Shown here piece after piece: positions 33,001 to 45,000 of a stretch of 64,000 bases of DNA. Within the stretch, counting starts at the first letter, position 1, and each line of letters starts with the position of its first letter. Position numbers: made by a program. The DNA is from Escherichia coli (lineage in GTDB: Bacteria; Pseudomonadota; Gammaproteobacteria; Enterobacterales; Enterobacteriaceae): assembly GCF_016903815.1 (NCBI RefSeq), contig NZ_CP069974.1; one strand, written 5' to 3'.

Positions 33001-36000
33001 CACCGCTGTCGGGATTATCACGGGCAATCCGGACACCATCCTGCATATTATCAGCCAGCAGGCTCTCTCCGTTACGGCTGCCCTGCAGGGCCACGAACTG
33101 CGCATCCCCGCGGCCTTTCACCCGTCCTTCACCGCTGAATCCCCGCAGCCCGTTTCCGTCATCCGTGGTCAGTGGGTTCAGCCAGATACCGGCGGACCTG
33201 CCGTTACGGTCAAACGCCGGCAGTGCCACATACGGCTGCGGATATTTACGTCCCGGTGCAATAAACCGTGCAGGGCTGTCTCCCCCGGCCAGCCCCGCCT
33301 GACGGAGAACGGCACGGCCTGCCGCCACGTCCCGCAGTTCCCGTGCCGTACTGAACAGCCGCTGCGCATTCATGACCTCCCGGTCCGGTTTCGGCTCAAA
33401 CACATCGTGGGCTGTTCCTTTCTGTACGGCATTGTTAATGGCATCCGTCCAGCCCTGACGGTTATCGGTGTACACCTGCACATGCTGCTTCATACGCGAC
33501 AGGGCCACGTAGGCTGACTCAAAGCCTGCCATCAGTTTCCGGTTACCTTCCGTGCCTTCAAGCGCAATGGCAAAGGTTTCACTTGTCCCCTGCGCACCGT
33601 GGGCGGTGATGGCATAGGCCAGGTCAATATGTTGCTCTGCCCGCTCCTGACCGGGGCGAATCACCCGGGTCTGCTGTCCGTCCGACAGCGTGACACTGTC
33701 ACCGGAAACCGCTGTCACCGTCCAGACGCTGTTGGCCACATAACCGCGCTCCCGGTCACTCTTCGTGAAGCGCATCCGGTCACCGGTTCCCACCCGGATT
33801 TTGTCTGGTGTGTACAGTGTGACACCTTCAGCCACCGCCTCCCGGGGCGAAATCAGCCGCGTGTTACCTTCCGCATCCTCCAGGGTTATCAGCCCGTCAT
33901 CCTTGCTGATACCGGCAATCCGGTGATACACACTATCCACCAGGGCAAGGGCATCCGGGTTATTCTCCCAGGTGGAGAGACGACGCAGTTCTCCGTCACG
34001 TATATTCGCTGTGTTCAGGACAGGCACCATGACCTGCTCTTTGCCCAGCTCACCGGCCTTTTCCCGTGCATCATGAATCATGCTGTTCAGTACGCGCCGG
34101 TCCTCATTCAGGTGCGTGACAATCAGCGTCTGCTCCCGTGCTTCCGGTGTCCTGCCGGTATAGTCGCGGACAATGGCCTCATACAGTGTCATGGGGATAT
34201 CCGGGAAAGCCTCGCCTTTCAGCATCGCCTTCTGCTGCGCTTCTGCCAGTTTCGCTTCCTGGCTGTGACTGAACTCCGTCACGGAGTGCTCCGGTGCCCA
34301 TGCGCCCTCCTGACGGGGAACCTGAGACGGTTTCACACTCTCAAGCCCGGACAGTGCCCTTTCCACATCCCGGTTAATCAGGCTGTATACCGCCTCCCGC
34401 AGTTCCGGCGTCTGACGCACAATCTCCTTCATGATGACCACATCGGCAGCACTGCGCGTCTGCTGCAGACGGAAAGGCTGACCGGGCGCGATGGCCTGCA
34501 GCTGGTCCGTGTCACCACTGGCCACGGCACGACCGCCACCGGCCGCAATCAGGGCGTATGCCCGTGCCATATCGGTATTGCCCACCATTGAGCTCTCATC
34601 GAGCAGGAACAGCGTGTTGCTGAAATCCGGCGTTTCTCCGCTGCGCTGCTGCAGCTGCGTGTCATGCAGAAAGGACGCCAGCGTCTGTGCATCCACGCCG
34701 GCGCTGCGCATCTCACCGACCGCACGGTGCGTGGGCCCCAGCCCCACAACTCGGGGACGCTCACTCGCCGGCAGCATGTTCACGGCTGACATCACCGCCC
34801 GGAACTGTGTGGTCTTACCCACACCGGCATAACCCTGTACCACCGTGAAACGGTCGGACGTTTCCAGTATCATACGGGTGGCGGCACGCTGTCCCGACGT
34901 TAACGTCTCCATGAGTTCGCCGGGTACTCTCTCCATCAACGGCGTGACCGCCTCCTTACCTTCGAGAATATGGCGAAGAATACTTTTTTCGGCACTGTTG
35001 CAAATAGTCGGTGGTGATAAACTTATCATCCCCTTTTGCTGATGGAGCTGCACATGAACCCATTCAAAGGCCGGCATTTTCAGCGTGACATCATTCTGTG
35101 GGCCGTACGCTGGTACTGCAAATACGGCATCAGTTACCGTGAGCTGCAGGAGATGCTGGCTGAACGCGGAGTGAATGTCGATCACTCCACGATTTACCGC
35201 TGGGTTCAGCGTTATGCGCCTGAAATGGAAAAACGGCTGCGCTGGTACTGGCGTAACCCTTCCGATCTTTGCCCGTGGCACATGGATGAAACCTACGTGA
35301 AGGTCAATGGCCGCTGGGCGTATCTGTACCGGGCCGTCGACAGCCGGGGCCGCACTGTCGATTTTTATCTCTCCTCCCGTCGTAACAGCAAAGCTGCATA
35401 CCGGTTTCTGGGTAAAATCCTCAACAACGTGAAGAAGTGGCAGATCCCACGATTCATCAACACGGATAAAGCGCCCGCCTATGGTCGCGCGCTTGCTCTG
35501 CTCAAACGCGAAGGCCGGTGCCCGTCTGACGTTGAACACCGACAGATTAAGTACCGGAACAACGTGATTGAATGCGATCATGGCAAACTGAAACGGATAA
35601 TCAACGCCACGCTGGGATTTAAATCCATGAAGACGGCTTACGCCACCATCAAAGGTATTGAGGTGATGCGTGCACTACGCAAAGGCCAGGCCTCAGCATT
35701 TTATTATGGTGATCCCCTGGGCGAAATGCGCCTGGTAAGCAGAGTTTTTGAAATGTAAGGCCTTTGAATAAGACAAAAGGCTGCCTCATCGCTAACTTTG
35801 CAACAGTGCCTTAACAAGTTGTTTGGGTGTTCGAATTTCAACAGGTAAGTTAGTTGCTAGAACCCATGGCTCCTTTGCCGACGCTGAGTAGATTTTAGGT
35901 GACGGGTGGTGACAATGAGTCCGTGTCGAGCGCTGATTTTTTCGGCCTTTAGAGCGAGATTTATACAATAGAATTTGGCATGAGATTGGATTGCTTTTAG

Positions 36001-42000: not shown

Positions 42001-45000
42001 TGAAGACGGCTTACGCCACCATCAAAGGTATTGAGGTGATGCGTGCACTACGCAAAGGCCAGGCCTCAGCATTTTATTATGGTGATCCCCTGGGCGAAAT
42101 GCGCCTGGTAAGCAGAGTTTTTGAAATGTAAGGCCTTTGAATAAGACAAAAGGCTGCCTCATCGCTAACTTTGCAACAGTGCCCTTTTTTCTGCCTCATA
42201 CGACGCACGGGAAACCAGCAGACCTGTGCCATAGCCTTTTGCCACATCCACATACAGTAAGTCACCGCGTTTTATCTGCGCATTGATTTCCCCTCCCAGT
42301 TCAGTAAAACCGGTTCCTTCTGCAGCAAACGACTTCGCCTCTGTCAGCAGGTCCACCATGCTGAAGGCCAGGTTTTTACTTTCCAGCACAGGAAGGGCCA
42401 GATGAATGGCCTGCTGTGCCGGCGTGTGAAGCCCGGCTTTCTGCAGACTGATAGCGGTTTCCAGCAATGTCTCACCGGCACGCGCCTTTATCTGATCAGA
42501 AACCACCGTAAAGGAGGGATGGCGGGCAAGTTTTTCCGCAGTACGGGGTTCATCCAGCGAGGAATACAGCCGGACATCACGACCACTGCGGGCCAGACCG
42601 TTCAGGGTCGCGTTGTCCATCGCCATCTGTGTGACGGAGGCAAAAACCGTCGCACTGTCGCTGACGGAATGCCCGGGCGTTTCCACCCAGCCGTTCTCCA
42701 GCTTCAGTGCCGTGAATGGTGAATCAGCCACAGGCAGGGTGGCCGGTTCAGCCCGCCCCGGCACAACAACCGTCATCGCATCTTCACTGACGGATGCCAC
42801 CTGCAGGCGGTCACCGCCGGAGACGCGGAGTCCGGGAATTTTCCCTGTCACCCTCAGTCGCTCGCCGTCTGCCACCGGCATTTTTTCCGGCCGGAACAGC
42901 GACCAGCTGCTGTCCAGGGAGGAAATACGCACCACCTGCGTTTCGCCCTGCGCATCCCGCAGGTTCAGGCTGTGACTCTGCGCTGTCACCCGGTCTATCA
43001 CATAGCGGTCATGACTGCGTGTCTCCGGGTTCCACTGCTCCATCACCATCCCCGGTCGGTACATATCCCGCAGATAACGGCTCCGGCTGTCCAGCCAGAC
43101 CGGTGACAGTGCAGTCATGGTCACCTCAGGGTGTCCGAGCACGCCCTGCGTTTTCAGCTCACTGCGAATGGCCTCTGTCAGTATGGCCTGTTCCCGTACC
43201 CCGCTGACCTGTGCCACGCTCTCTTCTCCGGCTTTCACGCTGGCCGCAAAATCTCCGGCCAGCCGGGCATAGCGGACATTACGGTCCGGTTCACTGATGA
43301 TGGTGGCCGGTCGCTGTTCTCCCCCCTGCCAGCGATATGTGTTCACCCCGGCATCCTTCATGGCCATCAGTGCACTGCCTGTACCGGTTCGCTGCCCGCT
43401 GTCGGTTATCAGGACCTGTACGTTATGACGTGCGGCACCATCCAGCAGGGTTAACGTCTCTTTCAGGGAGAGTTTTTCGCCCTGGTCGACGATAACGGTA
43501 CTGCCCGGCGGGAAGGCCATGCCTTCCAGCAACTGACGACGTCCGGTTATCAGTTCACCGGACAGCCGTTCATCCTGCTTCAGGTTCATCTGCGAGCGAC
43601 GGTCAGCAGCGATAATCTGCACCTCCCGCCCCTGCTCCCGGGCCATCATGACCAGTTCAGCCACCCGCTCACGCTGCCCGGCTGCACCGCCCTGCCCGGA
43701 CACAATGGCCAGCGACGGGCGATCCTGTGCCAGAACACTGACGGCATCGCTGTAACCGGCCGTCCGGGGGACACTTTTCTCCGGATGTACGGTCACCCGG
43801 TTCTGTTTCATGATGTCACGACTGAGTGCCCGGACTGACAGCTCATCGAGCACATGAATCCCGGACGTGAACAGCCCCTTCTCACGATCGAGGGGGATAA
43901 GCTGCTCACGGCTGATGGCCTCATCGATACCGGCGCGTGCCCGTTCAATCACACCATTTTCCGGCGGCAGTATGCCGACCGTCCTGGCCAGCACGTCCGT
44001 ATACGTGAACTGCACTTTTCGTTCACTTAATCCGGCAATGGCCTGTGTCACCGCCTGCTGCACATCCGGCCCGTCCTGTGAAGCAGGCCCGGGCGCCTGC
44101 GTGCGGATCTCCGCACGCTGATCCGCCGCGTCACGATATGCCCGGATGTCGAACCCGGTTTCCTTCAGCGTCTGCATCCATTCAGCCATTCTGACTTCAG
44201 GATCGACGTGCTGTTTGGATTTACGCGTATCCAGTGCCGCCACATCCCGGGATTTCAGCGAGGCGTCTTCACCGACGGCCTCCCGGATAGCCTGTGAGCG
44301 TCCGGAGAAGGCTTCCACCGGTACGCCCGGCATCTCCCACATACCGTGCTTACCGACCACTTCGGTTTCATAACCCAGCGCCTCAACGCGCTGACGTAAC
44401 TCACTCTGATATATTTTCCCGAACGCAATCCGGTTCGCGAGCACGTTCTCGGAAAATCCGGTTTTCCCCACTTTGTCACTGCTCAGTGTCTTCCATTCGC
44501 CGTTATGCTGCGTGACATTAGCCACCACCACATGCGTGTGTAACTGTGGGTCCTGATCGCGACTGGTGTCATGGTTAAACAGTGCCATCACCAGATTACC
44601 GGTCAGCACCGTTTCTGACTGTCCGTCCGTCATCACCCGTGTGGAAGCCAGCGCCTCCACCTGACGGACAGCAAAATCCACAGCCTGGTTATGTGCATCA
44701 ATAAGACGTTTATCCCCCCCGAGCATGGCCATCATGGAGACACTTTTGGGGGCGGAGAAGGTCAGGTCGTAGCCGGGACGATGCTTATTACTGCCATCCT
44801 GCATGCGGCTTAAATCCGCCCCGTCCGGCAGCCTGCCCTCCAGAAGACGGGTAAAAACATCCTTATCGACGCTGCCCTGCAGCCCAAGCTGTTCAGCCCC
44901 CTGAACGGAAAAAAGCACGGGTGTTCATGACGTCAAACAGCGTGGCCGCCGCTTTCTCACCGTAGATATCTTCCAGCTGGGCATAGGACTGGATACCAAA

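Follow-up and report, generated by a model that had tools for sequence, protein, structure and literature searches.

Two IS26 copies matching IS26-v1 bound an aac(3)-IId unit in traI of Escherichia coli

Does the pair of IS26 copies that interrupts traI in Escherichia coli contig NZ_CP069974.1 have an origin separate from that of the other IS26 copies nearby? The stretch analysed here, 64,000 nucleotides of a resistance plasmid and referred to as the window, contains IS26 five times; each copy is 820 bp long, and all of them lie on the + strand in direct orientation. An earlier note had proposed that the two copies at traI represent a distinct allele, and had read this as a sign of separate origin.

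Two IS26 alleles in the window

Copies 1 (5222..6041), 2 (10482..11301) and 3 (21154..21973) were compared copy by copy with copies 4 (34991..35810) and 5 (41364..42183). Copies 1 to 3 are identical to each other, as are copies 4 and 5. The two groups differ in exactly three columns, and the remaining 817 positions are the same. At IS position 459, G is replaced by A in copies 4 and 5 (window positions 35449 and 41822), and at IS positions 613-614 GG is replaced by AA (35603-35604 and 41976-41977). The transposase gene tnp26 extends from IS position 64 to 768 (35054-35758 in copy 4 and 41427-42131 in copy 5) and encodes a product of 234 aa. The change at position 459 falls in the third base of codon 132, turning CCG into CCA, and is silent (Pro132). 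Codon 184 begins with positions 613-614 and changes from GGC to AAC (Gly184Asn, G184N). This codon lies at 35603-35605 and 41976-41978; the earlier note had the codon change right and its coordinates one base off. Its title spoke of G184N and two further substitutions, of which G184N stands and the two others reduce to one silent change. Its body text, with three nucleotide changes including the synonymous CCG to CCA, agrees with the alignment, in which two changes produce G184N and one is silent.

Copies 1 to 3 carry the standard allele (CCG132, GGC184), and DNA identical to copy 1 is annotated with product WP_001067855.1. The transposase of the copy 4 type is annotated as WP_001067858.1 in RefSeq records with identical DNA. 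Within the window, the three-base haplotype was found in copies 4 and 5 only, with no mixed pattern. Because this haplotype is shared and the other 817 positions are identical, copies 4 and 5 carry one inherited allele and not chance changes. Both the proposed distinctness of the allele and its confinement to the pair at traI were thus borne out. Copies 4 and 5 are complete, with both ends present and perfect 14-bp terminal inverted repeats (GGCACTGTTGCAAA). The catalytic amino acids of this DDE transposase, D78, D138 and E173, are intact in both Tnp26 alleles (numbering according to PMC8477213).

By their sequence, copies 4 and 5 are the already described IS26-v1 (IS15-delta-1, or IS15DI; IS15DI / IS15-delta in published naming). 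In PMC9412624, IS26-v1 is defined as differing from IS26 at three nucleotides, and two of these changes yield Tnp26 G184N. Copies 4 and 5 show precisely this, with the silent change at 459, G184N at 613-614 and nothing else. They also have no detectable difference from IS26-v1 as described by Pong, Harmer, Ataide & Hall (2019), an 820-bp element with identical 14-bp terminal repeats and three differences that bounds resistance-gene units. IS26-v3 is likewise reported with G184N. A two-base form with changes at 613/614 only was found in NZ_CP173474.1; as the silent change at 459 is present too, copies 4 and 5 are assigned to v1 and not to this form.

IS26-v1 ranks second among IS26 alleles by frequency. 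Among IS26 transposases in Klebsiella, Escherichia and Salmonella plasmids, 1385 were v1 and 6266 standard, and the earliest v1 came from a 1990 isolate. The statement in the earlier note that G184N is a more active form has its counterpart in the literature: in PMC9019673, PMC8477213 and PMC11137137, more efficient cointegrate formation by G184N is cited from Pong et al. 2019 (FEMS Microbiol Lett 366:fnz031), and the cointegration frequency of standard IS26 is reported to be lower. The effect is attributed in the literature, as a possibility, to better binding to the terminal repeats, since residue 184 sits in a loop right after the helix bearing E173.

The aac(3)-IId unit and its relatives

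Copies 4 and 5 enclose a 5553-bp segment (35811..41363, + strand), giving a unit of 7193 bp. Next to copy 4, on the - strand, lie two incomplete transposase fragments of ISVsa5/IS10-like type (35813-36658 and 36765-37730), followed by the gentamicin resistance gene aac(3)-IId (37873-38733) and an AAA ATPase gene (38746-39288), which is putatively tmrB-like. Two short hypothetical ORFs are also present, as is a DUF3883 gene (40263-41390) that extends at its end into copy 5. The 8-bp sequence CTTTTTTC abuts copy 4 on the left (34983..34990, within traI) and copy 5 on the right (42184..42191). The insertion splits traI, encoded on the - strand, into a 3' (C-terminal) part at 32537..34990 and a 5' part at 42184..44902. 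If the unit and one copy of CTTTTTTC are deleted in silico, the traI frame is restored over at least 1728 aa. Two direct IS26-family copies with 5553 bp between them, a flanking 8-bp duplication and a restorable target together identify a pseudo-compound transposon. As a separate observation, the 5' part of traI lacks its own start because of another deletion in the tra region.

BLAST summaries cannot resolve three mismatches; 15 related aac(3)-IId loci were sampled, which are not phylogenetically independent. Their left flanks are of several kinds, and they lie on plasmids of E. coli, Klebsiella, Enterobacter and Shigella and on two E. coli chromosomes. In all of these non-independent loci (15/15), v1 is the allele carried by the IS26 at the ISVsa5-fragment end of the segment. 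The allele thus appears to travel with the aac(3)-IId unit whatever the context. Together with the CTTTTTTC duplication and the restored traI frame, this supports the separate origin suggested for the unit. The right-hand IS, by contrast, was standard IS26 in 9 of the 15 loci. In pAMA1167-NDM-5, pEcMAD1, pMB9880_1 and many IncF and related plasmids, the 7193-bp unit is identical except for the right-hand IS allele; in most of them this IS is a standard IS26 common to the adjoining mph(A) unit. The annotated locus in NZ_CP173474.1 (L003) matches the window unit base for base, the only differences being at the three positions that define v1, in the right-hand IS. Unlike the unit in these plasmids, the window unit stands by itself in traI, bounded on either side by v1 and flanked by a target duplication. 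In PTn6020 (aphA1, IS26-v1 on one side), direct IS26-family copies surround a resistance segment as they do here, whereas the present passenger carries aac(3)-IId together with ISVsa5 fragments and lies between two complete v1 copies.

Two relatives share the insertion site. NZ_CP020519.1 has v1 at both outer ends in the same traI site, with the same duplication and an internal deletion. In pMB9880_1 (NZ_CP103763.1) the site, the duplication and the v1 outer ends are again the same, and the island between them is about 17 kb larger. An intact traI-unit-traI arrangement was found in no record of PLSDB or of the RefSeq complete E. coli genomes, where the best coverage was 83%. Tentatively, and at somewhat less than even confidence, the window may be taken as the simplest, founder-like state of traI::aac(3)-IId, in which the unit is complete, v1 stands at either end and the duplication is intact. 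On the same tentative footing, the internally deleted and ~17 kb larger forms, in plasmids from Boston, Houston and Alexandria, would be its derivatives. If so, these plasmids would form a natural series in which an island grows between fixed v1 ends by addition of standard-IS26 units, and would offer material to ask whether v1 preferentially drives copy-in steps.

Entry of the unit into traI

For IS26 pseudo-compound transposons, copy-in insertion gives an 8-bp duplication, and IS allele differences mark which IS acted. We consider it very probable that the v1-bounded aac(3)-IId unit entered traI in one copy-in event, that v1 is a lineage marker of this unit and that the island with copies 1 to 3 is separate. 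The two IS26-v1 copies and the 5553-bp aac(3)-IId segment make up the 7193-bp pseudo-compound transposon, which one replicative (copy-in) cointegration would have brought into traI. Cointegration of this kind duplicates both the IS and 8 bp of target, which would account for the same allele on both bounding copies and for CTTTTTTC around the whole unit. By analogy with other IS26 units, movement presumably proceeded via a cointegrate intermediate and not by cut-and-paste. The donor may have been a free translocatable unit, or a plasmid whose cointegrate was later resolved by homologous recombination. The v1 transposase itself may have made the insertion. The CTTTTTTC duplication alone does not implicate it, because standard IS26 insertions are flanked by duplications as well (L003, NZ_CP173474.1).

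The alternative with most to recommend it, plausible though on balance not favoured, is that a pre-formed pseudo-compound transposon was delivered. Here the donor plasmid would have entered a cointegrate by way of one IS26-v1. Homologous recombination between copies of the IS would then have left the transposon behind, and the right-hand copy would be v1 throughout for the sole reason that the crossover lay upstream of IS position 459. This alternative departs from the copy-in explanation solely in the donor and the resolution step. It draws on the v1-left, standard-right arrangement in most other contexts. With the right-hand IS standard in so many of the sampled loci, the v1/v1 state could also have arisen by recombination during resolution and not by simple duplication of the IS. 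Recombinant IS copies in relatives (459A alone in L013, 613/614 AA alone in L003) indicate that the two alleles do exchange sequence by crossover or conversion, and the literature describes how IS26-bounded units move by way of cointegrates and homologous recombination. Against this, v1 is already present on both sides of longer versions of the unit that retain an ISCfr1 fragment, in L015 and apparently in L017, so that a v1/v1 donor or a translocatable unit with one IS appears equally possible from sequence.

The allele assignment and the origin of the allele could each be questioned. IS26 exceeds short-read length, and hybrid assemblies often collapse or mis-polish repeats; reads from the 820-bp repeat could have been misplaced or mis-polished, and the v1 bases would then not truly belong to copies 4 and 5. 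We regard this as very improbable, given that independent assemblies from other laboratories, of FII plasmids sharing this traI site, have v1 at the same traI junctions (NZ_CP020519.1, NZ_CP103763.1, NZ_CP173474.1, NZ_CP173527.1) and that both copies have the three variant bases together, unmixed. It is harder still to credit that the changes arose by mutation within this plasmid and spread by gene conversion between copies 4 and 5, with no separate origin. There are reports of gene conversion between copies of IS26, and nothing specific to this locus speaks for it; the haplotype is a widespread named allele, and copies 1 to 3 are consistently spared, which conversion would not lead one to expect. 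Convergent mutation and in-plasmid conversion were both rejected as the source of the allele, the same haplotype being found with the aac(3)-IId unit in replicons and species that are unrelated, including other genera.

The v1-bounded unit in traI is a real but ordinary case, as the v1 allele, its phenotype and the aac(3)-IId unit are all common and have been described before. Copy-by-copy typing of IS26-v1 versus IS26 helps to reconstruct the assembly of multiresistance plasmids, with little weight beyond careful annotation. Here it flags a copy reported to be more mobile and sets the traI unit apart from the island with erm(B), mph(A) and the class 1 integron.

The island of copies 1 to 3

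Copies 1 to 3 belong to this separate resistance island, which carries erm(B) and mph(A)-IS6100-chrA-sul1-aadA5-dfrA17. Target duplications were looked for around these copies, singly or as a block, and none were found; the copies are therefore not attributable to single copy-in events. This island seems to have grown outward from another IS26 that had inserted into a Tn3-family transposase remnant. In NZ_CP173474.1, a lone standard IS26 has AAAAATAG on both flanks. The same sequence forms the right flank of copy 3 in the window, and this match points to a separate seeding event for the island.

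IS26 alleles in the window

IS26 copies were located by a terminal-repeat search combined with a repeat scan of the window. Five copies of 820 bp each were found in the same orientation, starting at 5222, 10482, 21154, 34991 and 41364 (copies 1-5, left to right). By column-by-column comparison they fell into two identity groups, copies 1-3 being mutually identical and copies 4-5 likewise, and the groups differed at exactly three sites, IS positions 459 (G>A), 613 and 614 (GG>AA). Within tnp26 (IS positions 64-768; 234 aa product), position 459 falls in codon 132, where the third-base change (CCG>CCA, Pro) is silent. 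The double change at 613-614 gives copies 4-5 AAC (Asn) instead of GGC (Gly) at codon 184. D78, D138 and E173 are all present and intact. The alignment confirmed the claim of the earlier note that copies 4 and 5, the pair flanking the traI insertion, alone in the window carry a distinct allele with G184N and a synonymous CCG>CCA change, all three differences being common to both copies. Codon 184 had been placed one base too far left and lies at 35603-35605 and 41976-41978; only one substitution accompanies G184N, not two as announced in that note's title.

The three-base haplotype of copies 4-5 is that of the published IS26-v1 (v1), which has been equated with ISfinder's IS15-delta/IS15DI (PMC7986276, PMC7999438, PMC12540391). 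In RefSeq records with window-identical DNA, v1 copies are annotated as WP_001067858.1 and standard copies as WP_001067855.1, both verified against the base calls. In a survey of Klebsiella, Escherichia and Salmonella plasmids v1 was the second commonest IS26 transposase (1385 vs 6266 standard); its earliest sighting was a 1990 isolate, and both alleles often share one replicon (PMC11137137). In line with the more active form named in the earlier note, G184N is reported to increase cointegrate formation (Pong et al. 2019, as cited in PMC9019673, PMC8477213, PMC11137137 and PMC12540391). Residue 184 lies in the loop directly after the helix bearing the catalytic E173; the equivalent region of the related ISCth4 transposase touches the terminal repeat, and enhanced end binding by G184N has therefore been put forward, as a proposal only (PMC8477213).

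The aac(3)-IId unit in traI

The plasmid is of IncFII type and carries repA, pemIK, finO, traX and traI. Inside traI, copies 4 and 5 enclose a 5553-bp passenger segment, base-for-base identical to annotated records, with two ISVsa5/IS10-like transposase fragments, aac(3)-IId, an AAA ATPase gene, two small ORFs and a DUF3883 gene (unit of 7193 bp, 34991-42183). The same 8 bp, CTTTTTTC, stand left of copy 4 and right of copy 5. When the unit and one duplicate were deleted in silico, the two traI pieces fused into a single reading frame of 1728 aa or more.

Duplication and traI restoration are the hallmark of one copy-in event of the IS26 type, in which the IS is duplicated along with 8 bp of the target. 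The v1 transposase itself probably catalysed this insertion, and the donor may have been either a plasmid or a translocatable unit in free form. Standard IS26 likewise gives a duplication-flanked insertion (in NZ_CP173474.1), and the duplication is therefore not v1-specific. The structure is also consistent with a cointegrate resolved afterwards by homologous recombination, and plasmid cointegrate transfer with such resolution is indistinguishable from a translocatable unit copying in directly. An assembly artefact in allele placement is unlikely because independent assemblies give the same allele at the same junctions. Mutation within the plasmid followed by gene conversion was excluded, since the allele accompanies the same aac(3)-IId unit in other genera.

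Just inside copy 4, a 955-bp stretch (35811-36765) recurs at 36883-37837 with two mismatches and a period of 1072 bp, leaving the two partial ISVsa5/IS10-like fragments in tandem. The unit also occurs in versions with ~58-60 bp more at the junction with IS26, where the inner flank reads GGACTTTT, not TTAACAAG.

Related loci

Fifteen loci with the aac(3)-IId segment were read; those from E. coli lie on plasmids or chromosomes, and the others on plasmids of Klebsiella, Enterobacter and Shigella. The IS26 on the side of the ISVsa5 fragments was v1 in all 15, and v1 is thus a marker of the unit. Together with the 8-bp duplication and traI restoration, this supports the separate origin of the traI unit suggested in the earlier note. 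The opposite IS was standard in nine loci, mostly common to a neighbouring unit (mph(A) or another), and v1 in NZ_CP173527.1, NZ_CP020519.1 and NZ_CM148383.1. In NZ_CP055262.1 it was v1 by annotation, the locus covering just its first 86 bases, and in one Shigella plasmid it was a recombinant with the 459 change alone. Two copies in NZ_CP173474.1 (locus-local 21856-22675 and 27106-27925) have 613/614 AA without 459 A and are either the v3 form described in PMC12540391 or recombinants; 459 A alone is carried by the copy at 10063-10882 of a related plasmid (L013). Such partial haplotypes in relatives are explained either by minor variants already named (v3) or by reciprocal recombination between IS26 and IS26-v1.

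Two further plasmids, NZ_CP020519.1 and pMB9880_1 (NZ_CP103763.1), share the traI site with its duplication and likewise have v1 at each outer end. In the former the unit is internally deleted beside the right IS; in the latter extra resistance units with standard IS26, ~17 kb in all, separate the aac(3)-IId segment from the right-hand v1. The window holds the simplest form of the unit at this site, and a search of PLSDB and of the RefSeq complete E. coli genomes returned no match to its intact arrangement (best coverage 83%). The named allele, its known phenotype and the common resistance unit are all already described; the value of the v1 assignment lies in annotation and in reconstruction of plasmid history. 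NZ_CP173527.1 has an extra v1 within its unit (locus-local 18436-19255) with its own 8-bp duplication, GATTTTCG, a fresh v1 copy-in insertion in the same plasmid lineage.

The copy 1-3 island and remaining regions

Two units lie between copies 1-3, one carrying erm(B) and the other mph(A)-IS6100-chrA-sul1-qacEdelta1-aadA5-dfrA17. No target duplication was found around these copies, whether tested singly or together. The erm(B)/IS91-family segment between copies 1 and 2 (6042-10481) has CAAAATTT at both ends (6042-6049, 10474-10481), as expected if IS26 entered a circular form of the segment to give a one-IS unit, which later joined beside another IS26; its flanks are identical in pCR-0268_2 and pC5103. 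The 8 bp right of copy 3 (21974-21981), AAAAATAG, also lie on both sides (locus-local 88-95, 916-923) of the single standard IS26 in a Tn3-family transposase remnant of NZ_CP173474.1, which suggests that the island grew leftward from an original insertion in that remnant.

The tra region (~44900-47900) was already degraded, independently of the v1 insertion. traI lacks its own start and adjoins short remnants of traU, traW and a gene for a TraD-like coupling protein, plus a truncated traC, which implies a large transfer-gene deletion and a non-conjugative plasmid. In the leading region (~58415-62111), alignment to NZ_CP020519.1 identified ltrA (group II intron reverse transcriptase/maturase) and an IS150 copy close to hok/mok and psiAB; that relative's psiA is annotated as frameshifted. 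Window 1-5221 contains ISKpn19, a recombinase gene, relBE remnants and hypothetical genes. The matching block of pCR-0268_2 comes after qnrS1, whose position would fall just outside the window start.
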